A program made the translations under genes and the position numbers. A stretch of 64,000 nucleotides of DNA from a virus (lineage: Duplodnaviria; Caudoviricetes), in the IMG/VR virus record IMGVR_UViG_2799112568_000001, positions 3,857 to 67,856 of that record; one strand, given 5' to 3'. The notes beneath the pieces are model-generated. The model saw only the letters and a program-made list of their open reading frames with translations. It was not told where the DNA came from and searched no databases. Within the stretch, counting starts at the first letter, position 1. Every line of letters begins with the position of its first letter. Below, one piece after another: positions 9,027-63,998 of this stretch.

Positions 9027-10220
9027 TTACTCACCAAACAAAGCTTTTAAATTTTTGCCAATCTGGGTTTCAAGTTCTTTTGCTTCTGCATTCAACGCTT
9101 CATATTCTGTGTTCAACCCAAGCATGGTTTCTTTGAACGCTTCTGCTGTCATTCCGTCATCTTCAATAACAACGCCTACATAACGGCCTGCATTCAGCGA
9201 ATAATCCTGATCGGCAATGCTGTCTTCCTCTATAATTTCAATCGGATTACCGTCTTTATCAAGTTTAGGTTCACCGTTTTCATCAAGCTCATAAGAGATG
9301 CCGAGAGTAGCGACTTTGCATAAACCGATTACATCACGGTATTTGCCGTCAGGGAAACGCTCGGTGAGCCAGTTAATCTGCGCCTGCCAGTATGATTTGG
9401 TTTTAACTTCTTTATCATCTGATTCTTCGGGTGCTTCCGACATAGCGGCTTTATACTCTTCAATCAGCGCTTTGAGCGCTCCGGAGTCGCCTTTGTAAAG
9501 ACGGGTAATAATACCGAGATTTTTAATCTGCTCGTCGCTGAATTTGCGGTGCGCTCTGTCAACCTGTGTGAACACATTTCTCGCGTCAATAAAGAGTATT
9601 TCATCGTTTTTGTCGGTATGGGGCTTTTGTTTATCAAAGAACCAGAGTGTCGCAGGCAGTGTTACGGTTGAAAACATATTTGAGGGCAGAGTAACCATCT
9701 GACTGATGATTCCTTCTTCGATCATCTTCTTGCGGATTTCATATTCACTCTTGCCCGCGTCGGAAGCGGAGTTTGCCATAACGAGCGCGGCTCTGCCGTT
9801 TTCATTCAGGGCAGTTGCAAAATAGCCTATCCACAGATAGTTGGCGTTCGGCACGGTTTCTTTTTTATCCGACTTTTTCTTTGATGAATTAGAAGAATTT
9901 CTCGGCACACCGTATGTGTTGAATCTGGCATCATCAATAACCCTGTCAAATGTTACTTCATCCACATTGAACGGCGGATTTGCCATTACGTAGTCAAATG
10001 CGCCGACAGCATTATATGGGTCTGCATAAAATGAGTTTGCCTCGGTTATTTCGCCGCGGACATTATTGAGAAGAAGATTCATTTTGGCAAGTTTTACTGT
10101 ATCGGGTTCTTTTTCAACACCGTAGCAGCGGAAGCTCATCTGCTCCGCTTCACTGGCATTATGATTGTGCATATATCTTGCAGACTGAACAAACATACCG
10201 CCCGAACCGCAGGCGGGGTC
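9027..10220 (-). pseudogene. hsdM: 3' fragment (~397 codons) of type I RM methyltransferase, interrupted by the prophage at motif I
   Basis: Begins abruptly at DPACGSGGMF (motif I) and contains ANPPFN (motif IV). The upstream 34 codons of track ORF 9027..10322 are att-arm and terminator DNA, not an HsdM N-terminal domain. Confidence 0.88.
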
Positions 10221-10245
10221 TATAAAGACGCTATCTTTGATACAA
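10219..10245. other. Left attachment junction: TC core plus phage arm TATAAAGACGCTATCTTTGATACAA
   Basis: The arm matches the reverse complement of 63972-63996 at 18/25 positions (TATAAA....TTGATACAA). The core coincides with the hsdM break point. Confidence 0.85.
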
Positions 10246-10293
10246 ACAGAAAAAGCCTTCTCCGACACATAAGTGCCGAAAAAGGCGTAAAAT

Positions 10294-10344
10294 AAGGGCC
10301 TTTGAGGTTCCACTGTGTTCAACAGTAGAGCTTCAAAGGCCCTT
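10294..10344. terminator. Long bidirectional intrinsic terminator at the end of the left cargo operon
   Basis: 23-bp imperfect stem AAGGGCCTTTGAGGTTCCACTGT / ACAGTAGAGCTTCAAAGGCCCTT, 5-nt loop, T-rich tracts on both sides. Confidence 0.75.
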
Positions 10345-10449
10345 TTTTGTTTTGTCCGCTATTCTGTTGTTGTCGACCTCTGTGTAGAAGTTACCCTCCA
10401 CAAAAGGCGCTGCAAGGAATAATTAAAAAGTGTGGAATAATTAAAAGGT

Positions 10450-11025
10450 TCAATCTACAGAATCCGCGCAGTGCTGAATACGGCTGATTACCTGTTCTAC
10501 TTCGTTCCAGTTTCGCACACGCGTCATGCCGTGTGCTTCTGCATCATAACTAATGTTATGAGGAGCTGTCATCAGGATTTTTTTATAGTGCCCGCCTTCC
10601 AAATTATGAATACCGTCATCAATCAGAACATCTCCATTTATCATTTGTTTGCGGCTTGTAATTATCACATGATCCCAAGACAAAAACGGGAAGTATCTAA
10701 ATAGAACTTCACTCATCTTTTCGTAGATGGATTCGTATGGCGTAGCTGTAACAATAAACACTTCGTGCCCAGCGTTAATTAGGCGCTTCAAAGCATCTGA
10801 CGCGCCATCAATGGGATCGACGGTTTTCCAGAAACCGGGCTGCATAGGAATATCATAAACCTGCTCACGAGTTAATCCCGGAAAAGCGGCAGATACATCC
10901 CAAGAACGAATCTCCTCGCAGGATACGCTACACCCATATTTTTTGTTGACACCATCAACCCACGCTTTAAGAAGGTGTTCAATCGTGTCATCCATATCTA
11001 CAAGAATTACCATTTTCGCTTTCAC
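10450..11025 (-). CDS. 5'(3')-deoxyribonucleotidase (NT5C-type HAD phosphatase)
   Basis: HAD motif I LVDMDDTI, motif II IVTA, motif IV LIDDG; PGFWKTVDPI..A segment typical of the family. Confidence 0.85.
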   Translation of the reverse strand: MKAKMVILVDMDDTIEHLLKAWVDGVNKKYGCSVSCEEIRSWDVSAAFPGLTREQVYDIPMQPGFWKTVDPIDGASDALKRLINAGHEVFIVTATPYESIYEKMSEVLFRYFPFLSWDHVIITSRKQMINGDVLIDDGIHNLEGGHYKKILMTAPHNISYDAEAHGMTRVRNWNEVEQVISRIQHCADSVD

Positions 11026-11052
11026 CCTCTGGCTACAGAACTACAAATACGC

Positions 11053-11907
11053 TTATTTATCCATCTTCTCAAGTTCTCCGAGGCTTACTCCGTTTTCATC
11101 TTTCCACTTGAAATTACCGCTTAAAGATGCCCCACCTATAAAACTTGCTGCAGCGGATGGACTTGAAAGAAGCACATCAGCGGTAAGCGTATATGTCTCA
11201 TCAATTAGTTCAGAATACTTTTTGCGGTCTTTTATGGCCCTTTGGGGACAAGCCTTTGTGATTTGTGGATTAAGTTTACTGCCTTTCAAAACAACAAATC
11301 CGTCGCTTGTTCTTTTCCCCACAGCTTTTGCACCGCTATATTCTAAAAACAGTAGTGGCTCCGCTTCATTCTCTGGCGTGAGTGAAACATAGGGCTCAAA
11401 TACCTTATGGCCAAGAGCCCCCATTACTATTTTTGCGTAGTCTATGAACTCTTCAAGCTCGCTTTCTGTTTCCTCCGTGATATTTCCGGGATTAGGATCG
11501 TTTCCATTTTTTACAACGTAACGATTAGCTTGAATCGCTAAATTACAAAAACGATTTTCAAGATAGCTTATCTCTGTTGGCCCGAATGAGTTATTTGAAG
11601 TAGTAAACATTATCGTCTCGGTCCAATAGTCTATTGATGGGTGGGCCTCCTGAACACGAAGCAATAATCCCTTCCCATTTTTTCTGATTCCGGCTTGTCC
11701 AATATACACGACAGCGTTATCTTCTTTATCCGTGCCGAAGAGGAAATAGACACCGCTTTGTTTTAAGATATCCATGTCCTTACACTTGTCAAGCGAAGTC
11801 CGAGGTATTTTATAAGCGATACCGGTCCAGTTAGCGAGGGAGCATTTTATTCTGCCGCTCGGCTCTCCATCTATTAGGAATAGTTTTAACGTCTTGCTAC
11901 GTGACAT
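11053..11907 (-). CDS. GIY-YIG nuclease family protein with C-terminal DUF4357-like domain
   Basis: SGVYFLFG...VYIGQA (GIY-YIG), ISYLE, N.GNDP; C-terminal GFVVLKGS...SSPSAAASFIGGASLSGNFKWK. RBS GAGGAGG precedes ATG 11907. Confidence 0.85.
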   Translation of the reverse strand: MSRSKTLKLFLIDGEPSGRIKCSLANWTGIAYKIPRTSLDKCKDMDILKQSGVYFLFGTDKEDNAVVYIGQAGIRKNGKGLLLRVQEAHPSIDYWTETIMFTTSNNSFGPTEISYLENRFCNLAIQANRYVVKNGNDPNPGNITEETESELEEFIDYAKIVMGALGHKVFEPYVSLTPENEAEPLLFLEYSGAKAVGKRTSDGFVVLKGSKLNPQITKACPQRAIKDRKKYSELIDETYTLTADVLLSSPSAAASFIGGASLSGNFKWKDENGVSLGELEKMDK

Positions 11908-11941
11908 AATCTTCCTCCTCAACTACAGACTATCGATATTA

Positions 11942-12787
11942 TTATGAGAACAACGACAAAAAGACCCCGTTCTCCATGTCATTGATGTTATACAAGTGCT
12001 GCATCGTATTAAAGGTTTCTTCGAGATTTCTTCTGGCACTGCGCCAACCACCACCATCTGTTACCCAGACAAATTCAACTCCTGTAACAGACCGTGCTTC
12101 TTCAGCAATCATCTTATAGCTTCTGGCTGTCTCATTAAGTTTGGAACCGCCTCCGCCATAAAAATTTGTTTCAATAACGTAAATGAGAGAATCCGTTTTA
12201 ACGACGAAATCCCACCGCTTAGTAGATGTGCCTTCAGCGGAAATCGCAGAGAGGTCAACACCCCATTTTTTCTCTATGTCAGTTATATACATTTCCTTGT
12301 AGTATTCCACACCGGTCTGCTTAATGAATCCTTCTACAAGGTCCTCCATTTGATGGCCTCCACGGTTTTTTCTGCCGTTACTGTCAAGGCCGGTTTCAAT
12401 GCCAAGCACATAATCGACGAGGTTATTGACAAGGTGGTTTGCAATCAGATCCAATAAACCGGTTTTTCTCATAAACTCCATATACTGCTCAACGGAGTAA
12501 CTCATTTTATTGAAGTCAAATAGGAATGCACCTTCTGAATCTTGCGCATATATTTCGCTCTGCCGAACAGCCAAGAGTGTGGGAATACACTTCAGTATCT
12601 CCGGATATCTTTGAAGTAAGGAAGAAAAATCTGCTTCAATGTTCTTCGAGCCGATAAGAGAGTTCATGATATTAAGCTCAATTCTTATGCTCTCAACATT
12701 GGCATAGACTTTTTCAAAATCGACATAGTAATTGTAATTATTTATGCTCGGACGCATCTTTCCAAGCCACTCACTAAAACTCCGCAT
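11942..12787 (-). CDS. dpnB: DpnII-family type II restriction endonuclease (GATC)
   Basis: YYVDFEKV, GLDSNGRKNRGG, KRWDFV, ETNFYGGGGSKLNETARSY, FVWVTDG.GW. Confidence 0.9.
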   Translation of the reverse strand: MRSFSEWLGKMRPSINNYNYYVDFEKVYANVESIRIELNIMNSLIGSKNIEADFSSLLQRYPEILKCIPTLLAVRQSEIYAQDSEGAFLFDFNKMSYSVEQYMEFMRKTGLLDLIANHLVNNLVDYVLGIETGLDSNGRKNRGGHQMEDLVEGFIKQTGVEYYKEMYITDIEKKWGVDLSAISAEGTSTKRWDFVVKTDSLIYVIETNFYGGGGSKLNETARSYKMIAEEARSVTGVEFVWVTDGGGWRSARRNLEETFNTMQHLYNINDMENGVFLSLFS

Positions 12788-13571
12788 GCAAAACCTCCTG
12801 TTGTAATCTTCTAACTGAGAGTTCGATATATTCCTCTACATTGTCAATGCCTATGTACCGTCGTCCAAGCATTTTGGCAGCAACGCCTGTAGTGGAGCTC
12901 CCGCAAAATGGATCTAAGACCAAATCTCCGGGATTGGTAGAAGCTTCAATTATTCTTTCGAGCAAATACATCGGTTTCTGAGTCGGATGTTTCCCGAACG
13001 CTTTCTCTTTTTGTGAGGTGAGCGGTCCGGTCCAAACGTCCTTCATCTGTTTGCCACCGTTTTGCTGTTTCATTAATTGATAGTTGAAAAGGTGCCTTGA
13101 CTTCTTCTCATCCTTTTGAGCCCATAACACCGTCTCGGTACTATGCGTAAAGCATCTACATGCGAGGTTTGGAGGAGGATTTGTCTTTTGCCATGTGATG
13201 TTGTTTATGATCTTAAAGCCCTCTTGCTCTAAGGCCATGCCGATACTATAAATATTGTGGAGCGTTCCACTAATCCATATCGTTCCATTCGGGGTAAGGA
13301 CATTTCTGCATAGACGAATCCATTTTCTATTGAAGGCGTGCTTTTCAGAAACAGATGAAACCTTGTCCCAATCACCCTTATTAACAGAAACCATTTGACC
13401 GGCATGGCACGTAACGCCATCATTACTCAAAAAGTATGGTGGATCGGCAAAGACCATATCGACTGACGATGGGGCTATCTTTTTGAGAACTGAAAAAGTA
13501 TCACCCAAAAAGAGCATCTCAGTTTCTGTACAATAATATGGAGAAACCCTACCTTTAATCAGTTCTCTCAT
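12774..13571 (-). CDS. dpnA: Beta-class N6-adenine DNA methyltransferase (DpnA-like)
   Basis: MVFADPPYFLSN, KHPTQKP, VLDPFCGSSTTG; lies between dpnM and dpnB in the DpnII gene order. Confidence 0.88.
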   Translation of the reverse strand: MRELIKGRVSPYYCTETEMLFLGDTFSVLKKIAPSSVDMVFADPPYFLSNDGVTCHAGQMVSVNKGDWDKVSSVSEKHAFNRKWIRLCRNVLTPNGTIWISGTLHNIYSIGMALEQEGFKIINNITWQKTNPPPNLACRCFTHSTETVLWAQKDEKKSRHLFNYQLMKQQNGGKQMKDVWTGPLTSQKEKAFGKHPTQKPMYLLERIIEASTNPGDLVLDPFCGSSTTGVAAKMLGRRYIGIDNVEEYIELSVRRLQQEVLHAEF

Positions 13572-13584
13572 AAGACATTTCCCC

Positions 13585-14415
13585 TTAATAATTTGTGATT
13601 ATTACTTCTTTTCCAGTTCGTTTTGAGGCGTCACTGTTAATGGCTCTCCGAACATCAAAATGCTCAATCGAAAAGCCGCTATATAGTTCGTGGACAAGAG
13701 GAACATCATGATTGCTTAACATCACCTTGGCCCCTTGCTCTGACAATCGCCTGTATAGTGCAGCTAACCGTTTGTGGTCTTCGAGCGAAAAACCTTCTTT
13801 TGTGTAATCAGTGAAATTCGCTGTCTCATCAATCGGCACATACGGAGAGTCGAAATAAACAAAATCACCGGGCTGGACATCAAAACACGCGCTTTCAAAA
13901 TCTCCTTGACGAATTTCAACGTCTTTTGACCTTAAGTAAAGGCCTATGTTTCTAAGGTTTGCTGCGTCAATCGAGACACCGCCTTTTTTATTGTTGTATG
14001 GCACGTTGAACAGCCCTTTAGAATTAACCCGATATAAGCCATTGAAACAATGCTTATTAATCCAAATCATCAGCGCAGCACATTCAGGGTCCAGCTCATG
14101 GGCCTTGATTTTTGCGTTATACGCTTCGCGGATCTTCATATATCGCTCTTTGTCGCAAGGTTCAGCATCAAGCACCTGTACCGCAGCAATAACAGCCTCT
14201 GCGTCAATCTTGAGCTGCCTATAGACATTTAAAAGCTGCTCATTGATGTCGTTAATAACCACTCGTTCGGGCTGCAATTCAAGGAGAAGCGCACCTCCGC
14301 CTATAAAGGGCTCATAATACCTTCCGTAGTCCGTTGGCATATGCGCCTTCAGCCTATCAAGCAGTTGCGTTTTGCCACCTGCCCATTTCACAAACGGTCC
14401 TGTTTTAAATTCCAT
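13585..14415 (-). CDS. dpnM: Dam/DpnM-family alpha-class GATC adenine methyltransferase
   Basis: FVKWAGGKTQLL, YYEPFIGGGA, FNGLYRVNSKGLFNVPY, FVYFDSPY (DPPY variant), EVIITNY. Confidence 0.92.
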   Translation of the reverse strand: MEFKTGPFVKWAGGKTQLLDRLKAHMPTDYGRYYEPFIGGGALLLELQPERVVINDINEQLLNVYRQLKIDAEAVIAAVQVLDAEPCDKERYMKIREAYNAKIKAHELDPECAALMIWINKHCFNGLYRVNSKGLFNVPYNNKKGGVSIDAANLRNIGLYLRSKDVEIRQGDFESACFDVQPGDFVYFDSPYVPIDETANFTDYTKEGFSLEDHKRLAALYRRLSEQGAKVMLSNHDVPLVHELYSGFSIEHFDVRRAINSDASKRTGKEVIITNY

Positions 14416-14528
14416 CTTGGTTTCCTCCTAATTCCAAATTGGGTCATAGTATAGATGCCATACCTTTTTTCATTTATCAAGCCCATTTTGGAATATAATT
14501 TCTGAACTTTGTGTTTCCGGATGAACAT

Positions 14529-15200
14529 TTACCAGCCTCTATCCATCCGGCGAATGTCATAGACAAACTGCTTCTGAAAATAGAAAGCGTGGTTTTTGTT
14601 CGACACATATCTTCCATACACCCGTGAATAAATCGGATGATAACTACCACTTGCATCACGAGCGTCTTTGCTGCGAACCTGAATGTGAGTACCATTCGAT
14701 GTATGTATAAATCCATCAGGGCTATTCTCGATATGATATCTGAGCTGCTCGCAGATGGAATAGTAATCATTACGCCAGATTTCTCTTAATTGAGCAAACT
14801 TCCGGAGTGACAAATCGATATGGATGCTCGGCAAAAACATCCAGTCCTCTGGATGGCCATCTTTGCAAACAGGAACATAGAGAATATTACTGATTTTCTC
14901 ATAGAGATGGGTGTCTTCAAAAGGCCTCTCCTGTATCAGCTCGTCAATGACACTACTTATCTGTGTGATAAAGACTGTTTCTCTGGGATTCCCGGCTGCA
15001 TCACATTTGTTCGTTTTCAGTTCCCCATCATCAAAATCCAGATTTGTGCTTGAGAGATGCATCCCAAGGGACAGTTCAAGTAGTTGTCCTGTTTTGCCCT
15101 TGTTTATGATGATCATGTTCATATCGGACGGAGAGAATAGGTCTCCAAATCTAATTCCTGCAAGATTATTAAATCGCCTACATGCTTCTTCGAGTCTCAT
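14529..15200 (-). CDS. Single-domain MutH/Sau3AI-family endonuclease
   Basis: NKGKTGQLLE...LDFDDGELKT (PD-(D/E)xK core of the MutH/Sau3AI type), LYVPVCK, IQVRSKD, AFYFQKQFV; 223 aa, i.e. one domain. Confidence 0.8.
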   Translation of the reverse strand: MRLEEACRRFNNLAGIRFGDLFSPSDMNMIIINKGKTGQLLELSLGMHLSSTNLDFDDGELKTNKCDAAGNPRETVFITQISSVIDELIQERPFEDTHLYEKISNILYVPVCKDGHPEDWMFLPSIHIDLSLRKFAQLREIWRNDYYSICEQLRYHIENSPDGFIHTSNGTHIQVRSKDARDASGSYHPIYSRVYGRYVSNKNHAFYFQKQFVYDIRRMDRGW

Positions 15201-15202
15201 AC

Positions 15203-15745
15203 TTACGCCTCCGTTTCATCTCGTGGCACCAAACCCCACGTCATATTTCGGCCAGAATAGTTCCAGTATCGGATGTCCTGTTCAATGAATAGCCACTTGA
15301 TCGCTTTCAAAATGTGGTCCACAGGCAAGCCAGTGTCAAAATGAACTGTTTCCATATCGGCATCTGAAATATCCTCGCACTCAAACACACGTCTTAGTAG
15401 CTCGTGTAAACGAGAATACATTTCTGCATTTTCTTCTTTCTTGGCCTGTAAATCTGCTCCAAAGTCGTCATGCTTCGGAAAATTTCTTCTCCGTTGACCC
15501 GGTGGAGCATAATTGGCATTTTCAACGCATACGAGAAAGTCAAACCCGTTGTGCAGGTTTGCGGGTCTTTGTAAATAAACACGGTCACCTGTTTTTAAGG
15601 TTTCTACATAGTAAATGTACTTTGACGCATCTTCACCGCTACCTGTACCCGGTTCTTCAGCCGCAAGAGCATCTACAACTCGCATCCTGACTTCGTTTCT
15701 CGAACCGCTATTTGAAAAGAATTTTGTTATTTCATGCTTTGGCAT
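15203..15745 (-). CDS. Hypothetical protein (180 aa)
   Basis: Strong RBS (GGAGGA) before ATG 15745; ends 2 nt before the MutH-like start; no family recognised. Confidence 0.75.
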   Translation of the reverse strand: MPKHEITKFFSNSGSRNEVRMRVVDALAAEEPGTGSGEDASKYIYYVETLKTGDRVYLQRPANLHNGFDFLVCVENANYAPPGQRRRNFPKHDDFGADLQAKKEENAEMYSRLHELLRRVFECEDISDADMETVHFDTGLPVDHILKAIKWLFIEQDIRYWNYSGRNMTWGLVPRDETEA

Positions 15746-15756
15746 ATTCTTCCTCC

Positions 15757-16242
15757 TTAGAATCCTCGGTCCGCACAAAGGCGAGCGATGTCTCTCCAAC
15801 CCATGCCTTTCATAAAGACAACAGCATCGTTGACATCTCTGTTATTAATCAGTATCTCGTATGCAGCTAAGCGCTTGATCTTCCGCCCAAGTCTTGTGTG
15901 CGGGTAGTTTTCTTCGGCTGTCATTGCCATGTACAGTGTGGTGAAGAGCTTGTCTACCCTCAGCGCGTCATTCCCGTATGTGGCGGCTATATCTGATATC
16001 ATGTTTAGATTCATATCTTCAATTCTTTTCGTAGTAACATCATAAATTGCCACGAAATCGTCGTACACCCGATTGTTCCCATATGCCTTTCCTAATGATT
16101 TCAGATCATTAAAGTAATCTTTATCCAAGGGTGGCTGTCTACTACCAGCTGGATCTGTCATATACACACACCAGTTGTCAATTTTACCCCTGTCATACTC
16201 TAAAAACGAACCATCCGAGAACCGCTTTATTAGTTGACCCAT
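15757..16242 (-). CDS. Hypothetical protein (161 aa)
   Basis: RBS GAAGGA; abuts the next gene; globular composition; no family confidently recognised. Confidence 0.75.
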   Translation of the reverse strand: MGQLIKRFSDGSFLEYDRGKIDNWCVYMTDPAGSRQPPLDKDYFNDLKSLGKAYGNNRVYDDFVAIYDVTTKRIEDMNLNMISDIAATYGNDALRVDKLFTTLYMAMTAEENYPHTRLGRKIKRLAAYEILINNRDVNDAVVFMKGMGWRDIARLCADRGF

Positions 16243-16278
16243 ACTTCAATTCCTTCTTTCGTTACAAGAGAGATACAG

Positions 16279-16304
16279 CCTGCTGATATACACAGCAGGT
16301 TTTT
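16279..16304. terminator. Hairpin separating hamB from the downstream cassette
   Basis: CCTGCTG-N7-CAGCAGG. The T-run is on the + side, so it would terminate antisense transcription better than sense. Confidence 0.4.
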
Positions 16305-16319
16305 GCTTTTCAGTAGGTT

Positions 16320-20617: not shown

Positions 20618-20689
20618 GGCAGCTCCTCCTTACACCCGTATTTGCCAGAATATCACATACGGCGACCGTCGATAGTTAGAGATGTACAT

Positions 20690-23882: not shown

Positions 23883-23894
23883 GGAGGTGCCGAT

Positions 23895-50197: not shown

Positions 50198-50209
50198 GGA
50201 GGTACGGCT

Positions 50210-51298: not shown

Positions 51299-51315
51299 GG
51301 AAGGAGGTAATCTGA

Positions 51316-53838: not shown

Positions 53839-53849
53839 GGAGGTGCGAT

Positions 53850-54215: not shown

Positions 54216-54238
54216 AAACTTCAAAGGAGGAACTGAAC

Positions 54239-54670
54239 ATGAAAGAATTCTGGGCTACCATTCAGGTCGCTTTTGCTGCTGTCGGCGGCTGGCTTGGATG
54301 GTTTCTGGGAGGATGTGACGGCTTGCTTTATGCGCTGCTTGCGTTTGTAGTCATCGACTACATCACCGGAATCATGTGCGCCATCGTGGACAAGAAGCTG
54401 TCCTCTGCCGTGGGCTTCAAAGGCATCTTCAAAAAGGTGCTCATTTTCACGCTTGTCGGCATCGGGCACATTCTGGACACGCAGGTAATCGGCACCGGTT
54501 CCATACTGCGTACTGCTGTCATTTTCTTCTATCTCTCGAACGAGGGTGTATCCCTTATCGAAAACGCGGGACATCTCGGACTGCCGATTCCCGCAAAGCT
54601 GAAGGCTGTGCTGGAGCAGCTTCACGACCGTGCTGAAAAGGAGGACGAGCACCATGATGACAAATATTGA
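54239..54670 (+). CDS. Holin (toxin secretion / phage lysis holin family)
   Basis: IDYITG, KLSS.VGFKGIFKK, NEGVSLIENAG.LGLPIP. Confidence 0.9.
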   Translation: MKEFWATIQVAFAAVGGWLGWFLGGCDGLLYALLAFVVIDYITGIMCAIVDKKLSSAVGFKGIFKKVLIFTLVGIGHILDTQVIGTGSILRTAVIFFYLSNEGVSLIENAGHLGLPIPAKLKAVLEQLHDRAEKEDEHHDDKY

Positions 54671-56255: not shown

Positions 56256-56276
56256 TCTGAATACACCTCCGGCTAT

Positions 56277-56316
56277 GGCCCATCGTGGATTTTTCTGCGG
56301 TGGGCCTTCTTTTTTT
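56277..56316 (+). terminator. Intrinsic terminator after the lysis genes
   Basis: GGCCCATCGTGGA / TCTGCGGTGGGCC stem followed by TTCTTTTTTT. Confidence 0.7.
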
Positions 56317-56324
56317 GCATTTTT

Positions 56325-56364
56325 AGCGGACCACTTTGGCCATTTCCCTCCAGTGGGTAGTGAG
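56325..56364 (+). repeat. 40-bp exact repeat, copy 2 (upstream of the recombination module)
   Basis: Identical to 21646-21685. Confidence 0.95.
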
Positions 56365-56394
56365 AGGGACTCCTCTCGGACTGGAGGATATCTC

Positions 56395-56814
56395 ATGACC
56401 AACGAACAAAAAGAAAAAATCATCGACCTGCGGCATCAAGGCTACGGCTATACCGCTATCGCAAACGCTGTGGGTCTCAAGAAAGACAACATAAAAGCCT
56501 TCTGCCGGAAGCACGGTCTCGCAGGCGTGAAGGCAGAGAGCAATGCCCGTGTATCGATTGTTCAGGACATCTGCCTTAATTGCGGCAAGCCTCTGACCCA
56601 GCAGCCCGGAGTAAAGCAGCGCAAATTCTGCTGCCCGGAATGCCGGACGAAGTGGTGGAACGCCCATCAGGATCAGGTGAAGCAAAAAGCTCTCTACCGT
56701 TTCACCTGTCCGGAATGTGGTCAGGACTTCACCTCCTACGGAAACTCAAAGCGGAAGTACTGCAGCCATGAGTGCTATATCGCAGCCCGCTTCAAAGGCG
56801 GTGATGCAATATGA
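56395..56814 (+). CDS. HTH plus zinc-ribbon protein of the recombinase module
   Basis: N-terminal GYGYTAIANAVGL HTH; four CxxC pairs (CLNC, CCPEC, CPEC, CSHEC). Confidence 0.8.
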   Translation: MTNEQKEKIIDLRHQGYGYTAIANAVGLKKDNIKAFCRKHGLAGVKAESNARVSIVQDICLNCGKPLTQQPGVKQRKFCCPECRTKWWNAHQDQVKQKALYRFTCPECGQDFTSYGNSKRKYCSHECYIAARFKGGDAI

Positions 56815-57033: not shown

Positions 57034-58806
57034 TTGAAAACCGTAGAGAAAATCGAAAAAACAAAGTCGGTTATTCCCAAGAGAAAGCGAGTCGCGGCCT
57101 ACGCCAGAGTGTCGATGGAATCTGAGCGAATGCAGCACTCGCTTTCTACGCAGGTTAGCTACTACAGCAGCCTGATTCAAAAGAACCCGGAATGGGAATA
57201 CGCTGGCGTCTATGCCGATTACGGCATTTCCGGGACAGGCACAAAAAAGCGAGATGACTTCAATCGCATGCTGGCTGACTGCGAGGCCGGTAAGATCGAT
57301 ATCATCCTGACCAAGTCCATCCAGCGCTTTGCGAGAAATACCGTGGACCTGCTGAACACCGTCCGGCACCTGAAGGACATCGGCATCGAGGTCCGCTTCG
57401 AGAAGGAAAACATCAACTCCCTGAGCGGTGATGGCGAGCTGATGATGTCAATCCTCGCTTCCTTCGCACAGGAAGAAAGCCGCAGCATCTCAGAAAACGT
57501 CAAGTGGGGTACGATCAAGCGCTTCAAGCAAGGCATCCCCAACGGCAAGTTCACCATCTTCGGATATGAATGGGAAGACGATCATCTGGTCCCGATCCCA
57601 GAAGAAGCCGAGATTGTCCGCTGGATGTACAGCGAATACATGAAAGGCGCTTCTCGAATCGAGATCGGTCGAGCTTTGATGGAGCGCGGGATCTACACCC
57701 GGCAAGGCAAGCCGTGGGTGGATTCTAATGTAAAATGCATCCTGACAAACATCACCTACACTGGCAACTTGCTCTTCCAGAAAGAGTTCTGCGAGGACCC
57801 GATCACCAAGCACCGGAAGAAGAATCGCGGTGAGCTCCCGCAGTATTTTGTCGAGGGTACGCACGAAGCCATTATTCCGATGGATGAGTGGCAGGCCGTA
57901 CAAGAGGAGTTCAAGCGCAGACGGGACCTTGGCCCCTTCGGAAACAAGTCGCTCAAGCTGTCCGCGTTCTCCACGAAGATCACCTGCGGATGCTGCGGCA
58001 AGCATTACCGGCACAGCGGAAAGCGAAACACAGCCGGTGAGGTTTACTACATCTGGACCTGCCAGACAAAAAGCCAGAAAGGAGCCTCGGCCTGCGACTC
58101 CAAAAACGTACCGGAGAAGATGCTTCAGAAGGCTTCCGCTGAAGTCCTCGGAATTCCAGAGTTTGACGAGGCTGTATTTGCCGAGCAGATTCAGGAGATC
58201 ATCGTTGTCGGTAAAGACACCCTGACATTCCGTTTCTACGATGGCCGAGAGATCACCACTCAATGGACATCGACCGCAAAAACAGACTGGTGGACACCGG
58301 AGCGCAGGAGGCTCTGGGGAGAAGCCCACAAACGCAAAGACACGAACCCGAACCGGAACGTGTTCTACGAGTTTACCGGCTTCATCAAATGCGGCTGCTG
58401 TGGTGCGAATTACCGCTGTCAGTCAAACAAGCTGAAAGACGGTACCCCGACGCGGTCTTGGTACTGCACCAGCCCAAGGACGAAATGCCAGAACCCCGGC
58501 ATCCGGGACGATACGATGAAGCGGCTCGTGACTGATGTCCTCGGATTGGATGAATTCGATGAGGCTACTATGGACGCTCAAATCGAACACGCCTCTGTTC
58601 TCGCCAACACGGTGACCTTCCATTTCCGGGACGGTCATACTGAGAGCCGAGACTATCTTGACAAGCGGCGCGGCACACCTTGGACTCCAGAGCGCAGAGA
58701 AAAGGCCATCGCATCTATGAAGGATGCTTGGACAGATGAACGAAAGGCGGCGATGAGCAAAAGAATCAAAGAAGTAAGGAGAGAAAAGAAATGGCCAAAT
58801 CCGTAA
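57034..58806 (+). CDS. Large serine recombinase 1 (two zinc ribbons)
   Basis: AAYARVS catalytic motif, TKSIQRFARN, recombinase domain, two CGCCG ribbons. Confidence 0.93.
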   Translation: MKTVEKIEKTKSVIPKRKRVAAYARVSMESERMQHSLSTQVSYYSSLIQKNPEWEYAGVYADYGISGTGTKKRDDFNRMLADCEAGKIDIILTKSIQRFARNTVDLLNTVRHLKDIGIEVRFEKENINSLSGDGELMMSILASFAQEESRSISENVKWGTIKRFKQGIPNGKFTIFGYEWEDDHLVPIPEEAEIVRWMYSEYMKGASRIEIGRALMERGIYTRQGKPWVDSNVKCILTNITYTGNLLFQKEFCEDPITKHRKKNRGELPQYFVEGTHEAIIPMDEWQAVQEEFKRRRDLGPFGNKSLKLSAFSTKITCGCCGKHYRHSGKRNTAGEVYYIWTCQTKSQKGASACDSKNVPEKMLQKASAEVLGIPEFDEAVFAEQIQEIIVVGKDTLTFRFYDGREITTQWTSTAKTDWWTPERRRLWGEAHKRKDTNPNRNVFYEFTGFIKCGCCGANYRCQSNKLKDGTPTRSWYCTSPRTKCQNPGIRDDTMKRLVTDVLGLDEFDEATMDAQIEHASVLANTVTFHFRDGHTESRDYLDKRRGTPWTPERREKAIASMKDAWTDERKAAMSKRIKEVRREKKWPNP

Positions 58807-60362
58807 CCACGATACCAGCGACGCTCAGCCGATTTACGGCGACACCGCTGGGCAGCACAAAAAAGCGACGTGTGGCCGCCTACGCTCGTGTCAGTACCGA
58901 TCAAGAAGAACAGCTGACAAGCTATGAGGCACAGGTCGATTATTACACAAACTACATCAAGGGCCGGGAGGACTGGGAATTCGCCGGGATCTACACGGAT
59001 GAAGGTATCACCGGGACGAATACCAAAAAGCGCGAGGGCTTCAAAAGCATGGTGGCAGATGCGCTGGCCGGAAAGATTGACCTGATCATCACGAAGTCGG
59101 TCAGCCGCTTTGCTCGAAACACAGTCGACAGCCTGACCACGATCCGCTCCCTGAAAGAGCACAATGTCGAATGCTATTTCGAGAAGGAAAACATCTGGAC
59201 CTTCGACGGCAAAGGCGAACTGCTCCTGACGATCATGTCCTCGTTGGCGCAGGAGGAAGCCCGCTCCATCTCAGAGAACTGCACATGGGGACAGCGGAAG
59301 CGATTTGCAGACGGCAAGGTAACTGTTCCGTTTAATCGCTTCCTCGGCTACGACAGAGGCCCTGATGGAAATCTTGTGGTCAACCGGGAACAGGCAAAGC
59401 TGGTGCAGCGGATTTACGGGATGTTCCTCACAGGCATGTCCCCGATGAGGATTGCAAAGACGCTCACCGCCGAGGGTATTCCATCTCCGGGCGGCAAAGA
59501 CCACTGGAACCCCAGCAACATCAAGAGCATCCTCACGAACGAGAAATACAAAGGAGATGCGTTGCTCCAGAAAACCTACACGGTAGACTTCCTCACCAAA
59601 AAGAAAAAGGCCAACGAGGGCGAAATCCCGCAGTACTACGTCCGGGACAATCACGAGGCCATCATTTCCCCGGAGACCTTCGAGCGAGTACAAACCATGA
59701 TGGCAGCCCGGACAAAGGGCAAGAATCGCCTGAGCTCCGTGAGCATCTTCTCCAGCAAGATTAAGTGCGGTGATTGCGGCAGCTGGTATGGCTCCAAGGT
59801 CTGGCACTCCAACGATAAATACCGCCGGATAATCTGGCAGTGCAATCACAAGTTTGAAGGCAAGAAATGCACCACACCGGTTTTGACCGAGGATGAAATC
59901 AAAGACATCTTCGTTCGGACCGCCAACATGGTGATTACAGAAAAGGACGAGATCTGCAGCACCTACGAGCAGATAATGGCACCGCTGCTTTCAACTTCCG
60001 AGCTCGAAAAGGAACAGGCAGAGCTGGAAACGGAAATCAATGTCACCGCCGAGCTCATCGAAGAGTGCATCAAGGAGAACGCACACGTTGCCCTTGATCA
60101 GGCCGATTACCAGAAACGCTACGATGCCTTAGTTGCTCGGTTTGAGAAAGCAAAAGACCGGCTCACAGAGATTTCCGACCTGATTGTTGACCGGCTGGCC
60201 CGGAGGCATCAGATTGAGATGTACCTGCAGGAACTCCGGGAGCGGGAGCTTATAACCGAGTTCCACGATGCCGACTGGCTCTCGATGGTCGACCACATTA
60301 CCGTCTACAGCAAGAATGACATCCGCGTAAAGTTCAAAGACGGGACCGAGATAAAGGCATGA
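58791..60362 (+). CDS. Large serine recombinase 2
   Basis: AAYARVSTD, TKSVSRFARN, recombinase domain, CGDCG zinc ribbon, coiled coil. Confidence 0.95.
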   Translation: MAKSVTTIPATLSRFTATPLGSTKKRRVAAYARVSTDQEEQLTSYEAQVDYYTNYIKGREDWEFAGIYTDEGITGTNTKKREGFKSMVADALAGKIDLIITKSVSRFARNTVDSLTTIRSLKEHNVECYFEKENIWTFDGKGELLLTIMSSLAQEEARSISENCTWGQRKRFADGKVTVPFNRFLGYDRGPDGNLVVNREQAKLVQRIYGMFLTGMSPMRIAKTLTAEGIPSPGGKDHWNPSNIKSILTNEKYKGDALLQKTYTVDFLTKKKKANEGEIPQYYVRDNHEAIISPETFERVQTMMAARTKGKNRLSSVSIFSSKIKCGDCGSWYGSKVWHSNDKYRRIIWQCNHKFEGKKCTTPVLTEDEIKDIFVRTANMVITEKDEICSTYEQIMAPLLSTSELEKEQAELETEINVTAELIEECIKENAHVALDQADYQKRYDALVARFEKAKDRLTEISDLIVDRLARRHQIEMYLQELRERELITEFHDADWLSMVDHITVYSKNDIRVKFKDGTEIKA

Positions 60363-60377
60363 TGCACACAAGAAAAT

Positions 60378-60415
60378 AGGCACCGGGCTACTGTTAATTC
60401 AGCGGCTCGGTGCCT
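60378..60415. terminator. Terminator between convergent genes
   Basis: AGGCACCGGGC / GCTCGGTGCCT stem. Confidence 0.65.
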
Positions 60416-60419
60416 CTCT

Positions 60420-60629
60420 TTATTCTTCGTCTTCGACCTTGATGTCAAACAATCCCTCGCTCCGGAACTTGGCCAGAGTCTCCAGCATGTGTTTGCCGAT
60501 TCGCTCCGGGTCATTGTCCAGCCCTGCACAGATGATCCGCAGGCCGTCCGGTGTAATGACACGACCGTGTAAAACGGCAGTCTTGTACTTTTCATATTCC
60601 ACATATTCTTTGTTCGTAAGCTGTTTCAT
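60420..60629 (-). CDS. Small hypothetical protein (69 aa)
   Basis: RBS GGAGGT, ATG start, ends at the terminator. Confidence 0.7.
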   Translation of the reverse strand: MKQLTNKEYVEYEKYKTAVLHGRVITPDGLRIICAGLDNDPERIGKHMLETLAKFRSEGLFDIKVEDEE

Positions 60630-60704
60630 TTTGACCTCCGATAATGTTTACAGGGCAGCGCAGGGATAATCCTGTTTATTTCGATCTATTCTGCCTTGTA
60701 GAAA

Positions 60705-61373
60705 TCAATCTGATCTGTTCAACAAAAAATGATTCTTATTGTATGAAATCAGCCCATCTTTCTTCATCTTTGACAGCTCAGCCGACAAAGCACTTCGTTC
60801 TACAGAAAGGAAATCGGCGAACTGCTGCCTGTCAAAAGGAATATCAAATTCACGAACACCTGTCTTTTGTGATTGAGAATACAGATAGGAAAGCACCTTC
60901 TCCCGTGTGGTACGCTGTGCCATATGGGAGATTTTTTCATTCATCTGCAAATTCTTTGAAGCCAATCCAGTCACAAGATTACGAATCAAAACGGCATGAT
61001 GAACGCACGCCGATGAACAGGTTGTCATCACCTTTCTAACTGCAAGCCAAAGAATCCTACACTCTGTCTCAGCGAGAACAGAGACATCCATCTTTGAAGT
61101 CGGAGAACATGCATATGCTTCAGCGAAGATATCCCCTGAAATGAGTTTCGTTACGATATTCCTGTTTCCCCAGTAATCCTCTTTAACTACAAGGGCGCTG
61201 CCGTCCAGCACCAGACCGACGCTTTCAGGTGTGTCACCGACACGAAGGATATACTCTCCTGCACTATAGCCTGTTTCAGTTGCTCCAAGGCATGACAACA
61301 CAGTTCTCAATTCTGACTCATCTATACCGGAGAAGATCGAAGCACTTTTAATCGACCCAAAAAATTCTTCCAT
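60705..61373 (-). CDS. Crp/Fnr-family regulator (HcpR-like)
   Basis: cNMP-binding fold (GDIFAE), C-terminal HTH RQQFADFLSVERSALSAELSKM; divergent from hcp. Confidence 0.9.
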   Translation of the reverse strand: MEEFFGSIKSASIFSGIDESELRTVLSCLGATETGYSAGEYILRVGDTPESVGLVLDGSALVVKEDYWGNRNIVTKLISGDIFAEAYACSPTSKMDVSVLAETECRILWLAVRKVMTTCSSACVHHAVLIRNLVTGLASKNLQMNEKISHMAQRTTREKVLSYLYSQSQKTGVREFDIPFDRQQFADFLSVERSALSAELSKMKKDGLISYNKNHFLLNRSD

Positions 61374-61387
61374 AAAAATTCCTTTCT

Positions 61388-61401
61388 GTTGGAAATACAA
61401 C
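61388..61401. promoter_or_regulatory. Candidate Crp/Fnr operator GTTG-N6-CAAC
   Basis: Palindrome with Crp-like spacing in the short intergenic region between the regulator and the ferredoxin-hcp genes. Confidence 0.45.
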
Positions 61402-61458
61402 CGACTTGTTGTTTTTATTATAGTAAAATGCAATCAGAAAGTCAAGGAGGTACTTCAA

Positions 61459-62160
61459 ATGAAACGGAAAATCATTGAAATCGATGAAGATCGCTGCAAT
61501 GGCTGCGGCGCTTGTGCTAAGGCGTGTCATGAAGGAGCTATTGCTATGGTAAACGGAAAAGCAAAACTCATGCGTGATGATTACTGTGACGGACTTGGCG
61601 ACTGCCTCCCGGCCTGCCCGACGGATGCGATTCGGTTTGTGGAGCGCGAGGCAGCAGCATATGACGCAGAAGCAGTTGCTGCAAGCAAGGCAAAGAAGGC
61701 AGCACACCTTGCCTGTGGCTGCCCCGGAACAATGGCAAAGTCCATACAGCACGGAACGGAAGAACTCCCGGAGATCGCGGCTTCCCGCGCTCCTATTTCA
61801 CGGCTGTCCCAGTGGCCTGTGCAGATCAAGCTGGTCAATCCGAAAGCTGCGTATCTGGACGGCGCAAAGATCCTCGTTGCGGCGGACTGTACGGCCTATG
61901 CCTATGCGAACTTCCATGAGGAATTCATTAAAGGCCGCATCACACTGGTCGGCTGCCCGAAGCTGGACGCCATAGACTATTCTGAGAAGCTCACGGAAAT
62001 CCTGAAGAGCAACGATATCCGTGACGTATTAGTCGTCCGTATGGAAGTTCCATGCTGCGGTGGTCTGGAAAATGCAGTTAAGAAAGCACTGCAGGGCTGC
62101 GGCAAGCTGATCCCATGGCGAGTCGTGACCATCTCCACGGATGGAAAAATCATAGAATAA
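61459..62160 (+). CDS. 2x[4Fe-4S] ferredoxin-domain protein with Cys-rich C-terminal domain
   Basis: CNGCGACAKAC and CDGLGDCLPAC; C-terminal ADC, GCPKLD, MEVPCCGG. Confidence 0.9.
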   Translation: MKRKIIEIDEDRCNGCGACAKACHEGAIAMVNGKAKLMRDDYCDGLGDCLPACPTDAIRFVEREAAAYDAEAVAASKAKKAAHLACGCPGTMAKSIQHGTEELPEIAASRAPISRLSQWPVQIKLVNPKAAYLDGAKILVAADCTAYAYANFHEEFIKGRITLVGCPKLDAIDYSEKLTEILKSNDIRDVLVVRMEVPCCGGLENAVKKALQGCGKLIPWRVVTISTDGKIIE

Positions 62161-62196
62161 AACCTATTCGGAATAACGGAAAGGAAGGTACTGAAA

Positions 62197-63795
62197 ATGG
62201 AAAACAAGATGTTTTGCTATCAATGTGAGCAGACAGCCGGATGTGTCGGCTGCAAGGGAAATGCGGGCGTCTGCGGCAAAAGCGCCGGAACTGCAATCCT
62301 ACAGGATAAACTGACAGGAGCGCTCATCGGACTTGCCCGTGCCACTGATGGGGACACGAATCCCGATGAGACCACATATCGGACATTGATCGAGGGTCTT
62401 TTCACGACGATCACCAACGTGAGCTTTGATGATGCAGCCATACAGAGACAGATCGACAAGACTCACGCCGAAAGGGACAAGCTCGTTCCGCAGTGCTCCT
62501 TCTGCGCCTCTCAGTGCGGAAAGAATAACGACTACGATATGCAGAAGCTCTGGAATGACGATGAGGATGTCCGCTCTCTGAAATCCCTGATCCTTTTCGG
62601 GCTTCGCGGTATTGCAGCTTACGCCTACCATGCACTTATGCTCGGTTACACAGATGATGAGGTAAACAAGTTCTTCGCCGAAGGATTGTTCTACATTGGC
62701 GAAGACCTCTCCGTCGAACAGCTCCTGCCGCACGTCCTGAAGGTCGGCGAGATCAACCTGAAGTGCATGGCATTGCTGGACAAGGCAAATACGGAAACCT
62801 ACGGCACACCTGCGCCTGCAACGGTTCCTCTGTCCGTCGAAAGAGGTCCGTTCATCGTGGTGACGGGACATGATCTGAAGGATCTGCAGCTTCTTCTGGA
62901 ACAGACGAAAGATAAGGGGATTAATGTCTATACGCACGGTGAGATGCTGCCCGCTCACGCATATCCGGAACTTAAGAAGTATCCGCAGCTTAAAGGCAAT
63001 TTCGGAACGGCATGGCAGAACCAGCAGAAAGAGTTCGACGGCATTCCCGCGCCGATCCTGTTTACAACGAACTGCCTGATGCCTCCGAAGGCAAGCTATG
63101 CAGACCGTGTGTTTACCACAGAAGTCGTCGCCTTCCCCGGTGCTGTCCATATCGGTGATGAGAAGGACTTCACACCGGTTATCGAAAAAGCGCTTGAACT
63201 GGGCGGCTATCCCGATGAGCACCCGATGGCAGGCATAAACGGCGGTACAGCTGTGACCACCGGTTTTGGTCACGGGACTGTGCTCTCCGTCGCTGATAAG
63301 ATCATCGAAGCGGTGAAGGCAGGAGCCATCAAACATTTCTTCCTTGTGGCAGGCTGTGACGGCGCAAGGCCCGGTAGAAATTACTATACGGACTTCGTGA
63401 AGAAGACTCCGAAGGATTCCGTGATACTGACTCTTGCCTGCGGAAAATATCGCTTCAACGATCTCGACCTCGGAACAATCGCAGGGCTTCCTCGCCTGCT
63501 TGATATGGGACAATGCAACGATGCATACAGCGCGATTCAGGTGGCTGTTGCCTTGGCAAATGCTTTCGGCTGCGGTGTGAATGATCTTCCTCTCTCCTTC
63601 GTTCTGTCATGGTACGAGCAGAAAGCAGTCAGTATTCTGCTGACGCTGCTTCACCTTGGAATCAAAAACATCCGTCTTGGTCCGACTCTTCCGGCATTTC
63701 TCTCGCCGAACATTACGAAGTTCCTCGTGGAGAACTATGGGATCGCACCGATCACGACTCCGGATGAGGACCTGAAAGCACTCCTCGATAAATAA
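62197..63795 (+). CDS. hcp: Hybrid cluster protein (hydroxylamine / NO reductase)
   Basis: MFCYQCEQTA..GC...GVCGK cubane motif; GHD, YTHGEM, TTNC, GCDG, LACGK, GQCND, SWYEQKA hybrid-cluster ligands. Confidence 0.96.
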   Translation: MENKMFCYQCEQTAGCVGCKGNAGVCGKSAGTAILQDKLTGALIGLARATDGDTNPDETTYRTLIEGLFTTITNVSFDDAAIQRQIDKTHAERDKLVPQCSFCASQCGKNNDYDMQKLWNDDEDVRSLKSLILFGLRGIAAYAYHALMLGYTDDEVNKFFAEGLFYIGEDLSVEQLLPHVLKVGEINLKCMALLDKANTETYGTPAPATVPLSVERGPFIVVTGHDLKDLQLLLEQTKDKGINVYTHGEMLPAHAYPELKKYPQLKGNFGTAWQNQQKEFDGIPAPILFTTNCLMPPKASYADRVFTTEVVAFPGAVHIGDEKDFTPVIEKALELGGYPDEHPMAGINGGTAVTTGFGHGTVLSVADKIIEAVKAGAIKHFFLVAGCDGARPGRNYYTDFVKKTPKDSVILTLACGKYRFNDLDLGTIAGLPRLLDMGQCNDAYSAIQVAVALANAFGCGVNDLPLSFVLSWYEQKAVSILLTLLHLGIKNIRLGPTLPAFLSPNITKFLVENYGIAPITTPDEDLKALLDK

Positions 63796-63810
63796 ACAAG
63801 TTTAATAACG

Positions 63811-63848
63811 AAGATCGCCTTTGAGTCCAACATCTCAGAGGCGATCTT
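63811..63848 (+). terminator. Terminator after hcp
   Basis: AAGATCGCCTTTGAG / CTCAGAGGCGATCTT stem. Confidence 0.7.
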
Positions 63849-63971
63849 TGTAGTCCATAGAAAAGCAAAAACTTATCCCATCGTGTGCAACTTATGTTGC
63901 TGCCTACACAAATTACCCTGCAAAACAAAAATTACCCTGCAAGCGGCAAAATCGGCGGAGGAATAATTAAA

Positions 63972-63998
63972 TTGTATCAATCTCGGTGTTTTTATATC
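63972..63998. other. Right attachment junction: phage arm TTGTATCAATCTCGGTGTTTTTATA plus TC core
   Basis: Inverted counterpart of 10221-10245; TCTA occurs at both junctions (10219-10222 and 63997-64000). Confidence 0.85.

Follow-up and report, generated by a model that had tools for sequence, protein, structure and literature searches.

Probable integration of a Ca. Heliusvirales-type siphophage at the motif I Asp codon of a rumen hsdM gene by two tandem large serine recombinases

Serine integrases are usually regarded as reading a two-sided attB of about 40 bp at one locus. Phage regulatory switches, or active lysogeny, are represented by the A118-like phage in comK of Listeria, SPbeta in spsM and skin in sigK, while multi-targeting large serine recombinases (LSRs) and the transposon recombinases TnpX and TndX have a relaxed target choice around a fixed central GA/TC dinucleotide. 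In this study, a stretch of 64,000 nucleotides (the window; positions 3,857 to 67,856 of the IMG/VR virus record IMGVR_UViG_2799112568_000001) was analysed, which belongs to contig C262 of a Clostridia-type, rumen metagenome-assembled genome (MAG) of 320 contigs. Judging by its gene content, the element at window positions 10221–63998 (about 53.8 kb) is a complete temperate siphophage of the Candidatus (Ca.) Heliusvirales / phi1207.3-like lineage, and we consider it highly probable that it was integrated by its own two LSRs at the motif I Asp codon of hsdM, a gene of a type I restriction–modification (RM) system, the motif acting as a portable landing pad. Like the A118, SPbeta and skin switches, it lies in an open reading frame (ORF) where an LSR would have placed it, and precise excision would rebuild the gene; those switches, however, have a demonstrated developmental or infection-linked excision and an intact target, whereas targets of the relatives studied here are sometimes decayed, and the target is a motif common to many genes and not one locus. 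A relaxed choice of target around GA/TC is common to these multi-targeting recombinases, to TnpX and TndX and to the pair studied here; the targets of the pair, however, are non-random and clustered on the Asp-Pro codons of methyltransferase motifs, with a conserved half-site (B) and a nearly free one (B').

The closest described phages are the gut phages of Ca. Heliusvirales (de Jonge et al. 2024, PMC11283538) and the Streptococcus phages phi1207.3 and phi10394.4 (PMC4260502). The element shares with Ca. Heliusvirales a left-arm cargo with an RM cassette, the genes for a family A polymerase, primase, SNF2 helicase, SAM-synthetase-like protein, HNH protein, ParB-methylase, TerS/TerL, portal, ClpP, capsid, tail and holin-lysin, two serine recombinases at the right end with a cargo gene beside att, and hosts in several phyla; it differs in the cargo itself, which here comprises DpnII, Hachiman and an hcp cassette. 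The map of phi1207.3 shows the same module order with two resolvases at the right end (PMC4260502). Unlike the element studied here, the streptococcal phi1207.3-like phages are located in comEC, according to their record names, and phi-m46.1 in the 3' end of rum (PMC4288039), neither being a DNA methylase motif. The Heliusvirales paper labels the recombinase cluster as 'DNA invertase' and gives no integration sites (PMC11283538).

A second group of described elements is formed by integrative and conjugative elements (ICEs). According to Ambroset et al. 2016 (PMC4701971), streptococcal ICEs with a serine-integrase triplet are inserted in hsdM; the likeness extends to tandem large serine recombinases, site-specific disruption of hsdM, end repeats of 2–8 bp and cargo between recombinases and target, and the authors also raise gene restoration through excision. 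Compared by these descriptions, the ICEs are conjugative and have three recombinases, whereas a tailed phage with two is found here. Gene calls inside the element were based on Pfam and PHROG scans, which detected no conjugation genes, so the element does not have the make-up of a triplet-bearing ICE. It is already known that serine integrases can place prophages in genes and that ICEs bearing a triplet of such integrases occupy hsdM (PMC4701971); the phage lineage has been described as well (PMC11283538). No papers on integrase targeting of the Asp-Pro codon in several methyltransferase classes were found, the literature yielding only the ICE-in-hsdM, phi1207.3 and phi-m46.1 reports.

The features of the window that define the junctions and the recombinase module are the following:

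9027–10220, minus strand: C-terminal 397 codons of hsdM, from the Asp of DPACGSGG to the stop; 100% identical to residues 206–602 of the intact protein P0002, with the N-terminal ~205 codons missing.
10219–10220, no strand: left crossover dinucleotide TC; read along the gene strand, it is the GA with which the Asp codon GAC begins; position matched in relatives.
10221–10245, plus strand: P' arm of attL, TATAAAGACGCTATCTTTGATACAA; variants flank 18 IMG/VR junctions.
56275–56814, plus strand: conserved ORF of 179 aa upstream of the recombinases; phrog_2308, unknown function, 55–68% identity in relatives.
57034–58806, plus strand: large serine recombinase 1 (LSR1), with Resolvase, Recombinase and Zn-ribbon domains and the YARVS nucleophile motif.
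58791–60362, plus strand: large serine recombinase 2 (LSR2), with the same three domains and YARVS motif; 16-nt overlap with LSR1.
63972–63996, plus strand: P arm of attR, TTGTATCAATCTCGGTGTTTTTATA; the 21-mer formed by its inner part and the core recurs unchanged in 10 IMG/VR contigs and 45 species genomes.
63997–63998, no strand: right crossover dinucleotide TC; in four runs, contigs part from the window immediately after 63998.
63999–64000, no strand: TA, with which the presumed host B' flank begins; fits the xTA Leu codon preceding Asp; contig end.

The plus strand of attL reads GAACCGCAGGCGGGG, followed by the core TC and by the P' arm. Across this junction the minus strand reads GTC TTT ATA GAC CCC GCC TGC GGT, that is V F I D P A C G (on to SGGMF), and the core is the GA of GAC. 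In the ORF at 9027–10322, the N6_Mtase match covers profile positions 47–270 only, and no HsdM_N domain was found by the Pfam scan in this ORF or elsewhere in the window. A database search with the C-terminal 395 residues as query retrieved the intact allele P0002, a HsdM of 602 aa which is 100% identical over the C-part and reads PQPGEKKFL-DPACGSGGMF. Identity to the hsdM of the window begins at Asp206, the first two bases of whose codon are the TC/GA dinucleotide, and the junction is therefore that codon; the first-pass annotation had located the core in the GAC codon of DPACG, and this was confirmed.

P0002 carries both HsdM_N and N6_Mtase domains and is encoded on a 15-kb contig, followed downstream by HsdS (393 aa), a RelA_SpoT protein (339 aa), HsdR and a large NOV_C protein. 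This is the order of the left flank of the window, indicating that the empty site exists in nature. The organization of a type I HsdM, with HsdM_N followed by N6_Mtase in an operon with hsdS and hsdR, is complete in P0002, and the window keeps the C-part together with hsdS and hsdR. Residues 1–203 of this HsdM were not detected in the whole 320-contig MAG with HsdM_N and N6_Mtase profiles and tblastn; the sole HsdM_N match of the MAG belongs to a different hsdM, on contig C65, with 25% identity. The lack of the N-terminal part of hsdM, which had also been reported at first pass, is thus supported by both searches.

At the right end, the P arm and the reverse complement of P' are equal at 18 of 25 positions, the outer 9-mer being perfect, and the attL arm is the only opposite-strand match to P of at least 18/25 within the 64-kb window. 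Because of this uniqueness the pairing is not attributable to chance, and the 52-bp attP around TC, as proposed at first pass, is a fair reconstruction. True attP sites were present in two relatives, L094 and L091, where a variant of P' comes directly after the right arm and TC; the ~100 nt beyond attP in L094 show homology to the left end of the window's phage. Neither the exact reconstructed attP nor the exact 27-nt left arm had a match in IMG/VR.

Contigs from four bovine- and pig-gut runs covering 63000–63998 (the hcp region) track the window to 63998 and then enter several different continuations; this exact divergence into several flanks identifies 63998 as the recombination joint. One of the continuations (run X13) encodes ...LQPQSGESVYD, in frame with DPACG. 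Read depth climbs over the final 40 bp, as expected if the arm is common to several elements, and single contigs from other runs span 59621–63969. The contig of the element itself, not merely the window, terminates at window position 64000; its terminal TA agrees with the Leu codon xTA before Asp in the intact allele and with TCTA(A/G) in uninterrupted sites of the same hsdM family. The unseen right flank would then be the N-terminal half of hsdM.

Both recombinases contain the catalytic domain PF00239 with an AAYARVS motif (Ser nucleophile), have PF07508 and PF13408 C-terminal to it, and match phrog_95 'integrase'; for both, the closest solved catalytic domain is 3g13, a conjugative-transposon recombinase. 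LSR2 is 57–68% identical to the recombinases of Ca. Heliusvirales phages and 55% to that of Streptococcus phage phi1207.3. The att sites have the form expected for a serine integrase, an imperfect inverted repeat (18/25) around a 2-bp non-palindromic TC, with TC at both ends. Together with the full phage gene set described below, these data bear out the earlier description of the element as a prophage bounded by serine-integrase att arms. The 179-aa ORF at 56275–56814 is only a candidate for the directionality factor.

The same arms were found in many other genomes. The exact right-arm 21-mer, CAATCTCGGTGTTTTTATATC, was present in 10 IMG/VR contigs and 45 species-representative genomes, and all of them part ways immediately after TATATC, in most cases continuing as the N-terminal half of an adenine methyltransferase gene. 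The right-arm carriers examined have the same recombinase pair at 80–86% identity, followed by variable cargo, and hosts of these arms include Clostridia families and Actinobacteria isolates. The left-arm pattern TCTATAAARAYGYYRTCTTTGATA flanks 18 IMG/VR junctions, whose host sides read DPACGSG, DPTSGSGSLL, DPACGTGGFL, DPCCGSGGMF, EPSCGTGNFL and similar. In ten IMG/VR records with the left arm, a search for the right arm allowing 3 mismatches gave no match. In four elements a single contig carries the two junctions, and the intact motif was rebuilt in each of them (a slash marks the split point):

G001, IMG/VR provirus, 57.3 kb, both junctions: IKIYD/PTSGSGSLL.
Anaeromassilibacillus senegalensis An867, isolate, 55.3 kb, both junctions: KCIYID/PPFNTGQAF, beta-class.
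Bifidobacterium merycicum DSM 6492, isolate, G017:C5:478721-493913 (L083, L098), 15.2 kb, both junctions: RICD/PACGTAGFL, gamma-class.
G023, Ruminiclostridium MAG, 47.5 kb, both junctions: VVYD/PCCGSGGMF.

The Bifidobacterium merycicum element, of ~15.2 kb, is below phage size; it could represent a phage remnant or a satellite, or else the recombinase module may travel here in a different kind of element.

Targets were classified from the 38 N-side fragments of at least 40 aa at the right arm. N6_Mtase was matched by 17 of the 38 (13 of them also by HsdM_N), MmeI by two and D12 by one. A further eight of the 38 were assigned by motif to the beta-class, being of the GDNL..LK.L...Y.G..KCIYID type, which we take to be the sequence preceding DPPY in beta-class (type III-like) enzymes; this attribution was confirmed in one case, Anaeromassilibacillus senegalensis An867. 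The host-side N-terminal methyltransferase halves at the right arm end in (I/V/L/C)-(Y/I/L/C)-D. The targeting of a conserved methyltransferase motif by the integrase, claimed at first pass, is borne out by dozens of further genomes in which elements with these arms occupy this codon.

The hsdM family of the window was also split at the same codon in L065 and in L097/L100, which read GDKKFLD/PACGSGGMF. Uninterrupted attB sites of this family were found at no fewer than 68 sites (68 of the 80 metagenome loci listed), reading ...GC(N)GG(R)-TC-TA(R)(R)AAYTTCTTTTC..., and they share TCTA with the terminus of the window. A scan for the B' flank gave no attR among these 80 loci, none of which is closer than about 75–79% nucleotide identity to the allele of the window. 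Among 119 short N-terminal fragments of the family, 45 stop matching right after FL(D/E); 38 of those 45 read through an arm which keeps the outer TTGATACAA, translated as (L/M)IQ. The tail of one fragment, P0210, is exactly that predicted from the arm of the window, D-IKTPRLIQFNYSSADFAA.

Other occurrences of the arms were recorded separately. In the IMG/VR proviruses G011/G012 (L042-L044, L050-L052) the left arm and the adjacent ~30 nt are as in the window, while the recombinases are ~40% identical and the right arm is different. G007 (L045-L049) contains more than one element, with two recombinase pairs. The GenBank record PV036426.1 (58596-58714; L223), a Heliusvirales 'complete genome', ends in the arm variant TTGTATCAAACTTGGTAAGATTATT-TC followed by ~80 nt resembling host flank, and these terminal ~80 nt are annotated as 'similar to hypothetical protein'. 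Deposited phage records such as PV036426.1 probably include split host genes.

Half-site information was determined from position counts over 20 B arms and 51 B' arms. The C-terminal-side (B) arm is informative, ...CC.G..CC(R)CA.GC.GG(R), and this information is largely due to the codons for P-x-C-G-x-G, whereas the N-terminal-side (B') arm has less than 0.5 bit at every position. One attP serves sites with little DNA in common, with the TC/GA crossover in the Asp codon and two similar arms. In L055 (JAFTDT010000092.1) the orientation is opposite: the right arm then lies on the C-terminal motif side, TATATC/CCCTGCCTGCGGCAGCGGC, encoding ..I P A C G S G S, and the crossover is the TC of GAT-CCT in place of the GA of GAC. 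We infer that the two recombinases act jointly and that recognition is mainly by one half-site and the core.

Several observations weigh against the integration mechanism favoured here. A near-empty B' half-site is odd for serine integrases. Asp-Pro sites of the form GAT-CC(N) are present in the DpnA and ParB-methylase genes of the phage itself, and three candidate Asp-Pro sites of the same MAG are unoccupied (the slash here follows the Asp):

MAG contig C65: second hsdM, cut by the contig end, RIYD/PTCGSGG, unoccupied.
MAG contig C102: gamma-class methylase, VID/PCCGSG, unoccupied.
MAG contig C310: beta-class methylase, KCIYID/PPYNTG, unoccupied.

Taken together, the phage's own sites and the unoccupied host sites mean that recognition must need more than Asp-Pro. 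A minority of targets are not methylases, namely a radical-SAM enzyme, a PfkB kinase and a fragment that resembles rubredoxin and has CGYVYD at its end; they count against an adaptive counter-defence or RM switch. The right flank of this element lies outside the assembly, and its attR is read from two bases and by analogy. Among the continuations listed for the four runs, neither the attP continuation TATAAAG behind 63998 nor the hsdM flank of this allele was present, and no attP, attB or empty-site reads for this element were among them.

The consequences for the host were deduced from the position of the junction. To the left of it, the window contains the following host island:

1–3519, minus strand: large ORF open at the window start, without Pfam match; the empty-site contig has a NOV_C protein of 1552 aa at this place.
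3603–6842, minus strand: hsdR, type I restriction subunit, with HSDR_N, SWI2_SNF2, T1R_D3 and T1RH-like_C.
6839–7858, minus strand: RelA_SpoT-domain gene (CapRel-like) between hsdS and hsdR, with a 17-nt overlap with hsdS; the order is the same in the empty-site contig.
7842–9023, minus strand: hsdS, specificity subunit, Methylase_S in two repeats.

The G+C content is 34–42% in the host island, 42–44% in the left cargo and 52–57% in the phage core, the MAG mean being 49%. HsdM is severed between its N-terminal domain and its catalytic domain. In type I systems, HsdR acts only with the M2S complex, and without HsdM there is neither modification nor restriction. Since HsdM is cut before the catalytic domain and HsdR needs M2S, the type I system is very probably off in the lysogen, to which the terminator-like hairpin inside attL (see below) would add; the inactivation of type I RM by lysogeny, put forward at first pass, is on these grounds a sound deduction. 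The genes hsdS, CapRel-like and hsdR are probably cut off from their upstream promoter. The type I system and the CapRel-like gene are probably silent in the lysogen. As a side observation, the CapRel-like RelA_SpoT gene, embedded in the RM operon, would share the fate of that operon. Serine recombination is conservative, and excision should thus rebuild the Asp codon and restore hsdM. With regard to a regulatory switch, the prophage is indeed inside an ORF; a target gene kept functional across lysogens was not found, as several split targets of relatives contain stops or frameshifts.

The remaining gene content of the element is as follows:

10255–10286, minus strand: terminator-like hairpin with a 14-bp stem and a T-run, 35 nt inside attL and facing the split hsdM; closes the leftward cargo operon.
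10450–16242, minus strand: left-arm cargo with NT5C nucleotidase, DUF4357, DpnII endonuclease and two methylases (N6_N4, D12), MutH-like nuclease, an unknown ORF and DUF7004 (Pfam).
16320–20392, minus strand: Hachiman-type pair, helicase (DEAD/Helicase_C, 868 aa) and HamA (489 aa) (Pfam).
20408–21582, both strands: lysogeny and early control, with a Cro/C1-type helix-turn-helix gene (minus), a small ORF and a sigma-like gene (plus) (Pfam, PHROG).
22113–35281, plus strand: replication and modification, with DUF2800 PD-(D/E)XK nuclease, Enc34-type single-stranded DNA-binding protein (SSB), family A polymerase, D5-type primase, VRR-NUC, SNF2 helicase, regulator, HNH, small terminase, SAM-synthetase-like, ParB-methylase and amidoligase-like genes (Pfam, PHROG).
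36510–56255, plus strand: packaging, head, tail and lysis, with TerL, portal, ClpP protease, HK97-type capsid, head-tail genes, tape measure, Sipho_tail, Prophage_tail, DUF859 fibre, holin and GH25-CW_7 endolysin (Pfam).
60705–63795, mixed strands: right-arm cargo with a Crp/Fnr-type regulator (minus), 4Fe-4S ferredoxin and hybrid-cluster protein (Prismane, hcp); inside the element and linked to the phage by single contigs in other runs.

Among the replication, packaging and head genes, Pfam detected those for a polymerase, a primase, a helicase, an SSB, TerL, a portal, a protease and a capsid. TerL is 87–92% identical to those of the Ca. Heliusvirales references NatCom_27610, NatCom_35866, NatCom_38182 and NatCom_991, and the taxonomy line of PV036426 is Ca. 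Heliusvirales. In relatives, the slot between the recombinases and the right arm holds other cargo. The left-arm defence cargo spans 11942–20392 on the minus strand and consists of the DpnII set, the MutH-like nuclease, next to which lie two genes of unknown function (DUF7004 being one), and the Hachiman pair; in HamA, of 489 aa, the Pfam match begins at residue 234. An identical 40-bp direct repeat is located at 21646–21685 and 56325–56364, ahead of the replication genes and of the ORF/recombinase block. The sigma-like protein may use both copies as a promoter or operator. In two runs, contig breaks coincide precisely with 56325 and 56364, as expected from the repeat.

The explanation which we favour can be outlined as a series of steps. 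The tandem, translationally overlapping LSRs would exchange strands at a non-palindromic TC/GA, the crossover being the first two bases of the Asp codon in motif I, DPACGSGG (S-adenosylmethionine-binding loop), of hsdM. The codons for Asp-Pro and the glycine-rich loop would form a short DNA word held near-constant by selection at the protein level, and located in dispensable, horizontally mobile genes of very many bacteria. Such a word would offer a harmless, portable landing pad and allow lysogeny across families and even phyla, the loss of one RM system being a side effect offset by the DpnII and Hachiman systems of the phage. This reading is favoured by the occurrence of the arms across Clostridia and Actinobacteria, by the non-methylase targets, by the decayed halves and by the retention of the other RM-type methylases of the host. 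Decayed split halves of relatives include DLACVSGSLL... and DQACGTEHFS, both running into a stop, and a frameshifted N-half in L065. The landing-pad reading is the most likely one; that it is an argument from distribution has to be counted against it.

Alternatively, the insertion could be an adaptive anti-restriction or defence replacement, in which the RM knock-out benefits the phage, DpnII and Hachiman are installed and excision possibly works as a reversible RM switch. At first pass, the insertion had likewise been read as an integration-based counter-defence or a reversible RM switch, and this part of the earlier reading found no support in the tests made. Of the 38 targets that could be classified, at least 28 encode DNA adenine methyltransferases, in four classes, from systems of the RM type, and a full DpnII system and Hachiman lie within 10 kb of the junction; moreover, the terminator insulates the remainder of the type I operon, and the split C-half is still 100% identical to the intact allele, so the insertion is recent and in principle reversible. 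However, phage DNA is already past restriction by the time of integration, and phages released from a lysogen lacking HsdM would have unmodified DNA, open to attack by sister cells in which the system is active. The host retains intact another hsdM, another gamma-class methylase and a beta-class methylase, the stops and frameshifts in the split halves of relatives (L029, L037, L065 and others) indicate that the gene is not kept for re-use, some targets (PfkB, radical SAM, rubredoxin) are not methylases, and no excision signal was found among the continuations listed in the four runs. On balance, we regard this alternative as unlikely. Similarly doubtful is its strongest form, a two-recombinase module of a widespread gut-phage order acting as a 'motif-homing' integrase which reads the DNA for the Asp-Pro start of the SAM-binding or catalytic motifs in at least four adenine-methyltransferase classes (type I/II gamma, MmeI-type, D12 and type III-like beta) with one half-site almost free, so that lysogeny would disable host RM by design, the phage-borne defence would replace it and excision would restore it.

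An assembly or binning artefact, in which phage and RM island were joined in silico at a short shared word and hsdM is merely truncated, is very improbable. The MAG consists of 320 contigs, the contig terminates at the other att site, and the G+C content of the host flank (34–42%) differs from that of the phage core (52–57%) and from the MAG mean (49%); nevertheless, the position of the join is precisely that at which related elements, in long contigs and in the genomes of isolates, abut the C-halves of methylases, the shared word would be TC alone, and the frame, the arm symmetry and the far-end TA are all consistent with one recombination event. That the true right end lies just past LSR2 (~60.4–60.7 kb), with Crp-ferredoxin-hcp as host DNA and the right arm as a chance match, has hardly any probability: hcp, ferredoxin and the Crp regulator are ordinary cellular genes, G+C content is slightly lower there (48–51% versus 52–57%) and relatives have other cargo in this slot, but the arm at 63972–63996 is the sole match to P' of at least 18/25 in the window, the exact 21-mer terminates 55 related elements after variable cargo downstream of the same recombinase pair, contigs of the four runs are unbroken from the recombinase/regulator region to the arm (with a short k-mer overlap) and fan out behind 63998, and L094 has an attP in which this arm meets the phage's left end.

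Returning to the integration of a Heliusvirales siphophage by its own LSRs at the motif I Asp codon, the window adds a clean, recent insertion in a type I hsdM from the rumen, in a MAG of Clostridia type; the insertion is limited as an example by its unassembled right flank. One attP, with the same two arms, is found here at the Asp-Pro codon of methylase genes which share little beyond the protein motif, in Clostridia, Actinobacteria and other phyla. If true, this would account for the lysogeny of the very widespread Heliusvirales in varied hosts, and host genes split by insertion would be the true nature of many hsdM/mod genes that are annotated at the ends of prophages as 'phage-encoded' or 'truncated'. 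The recombinases would represent a natural pair with one strict and one relaxed half-site, relevant to integrase engineering. Were motif-homing by design true, the choice of integration site would be a counter-defence and host-range strategy. Heliusvirales lysogeny, if one attP indeed serves the Asp-Pro codons of so many methylase genes, would rewrite the restriction and methylation state of the host.

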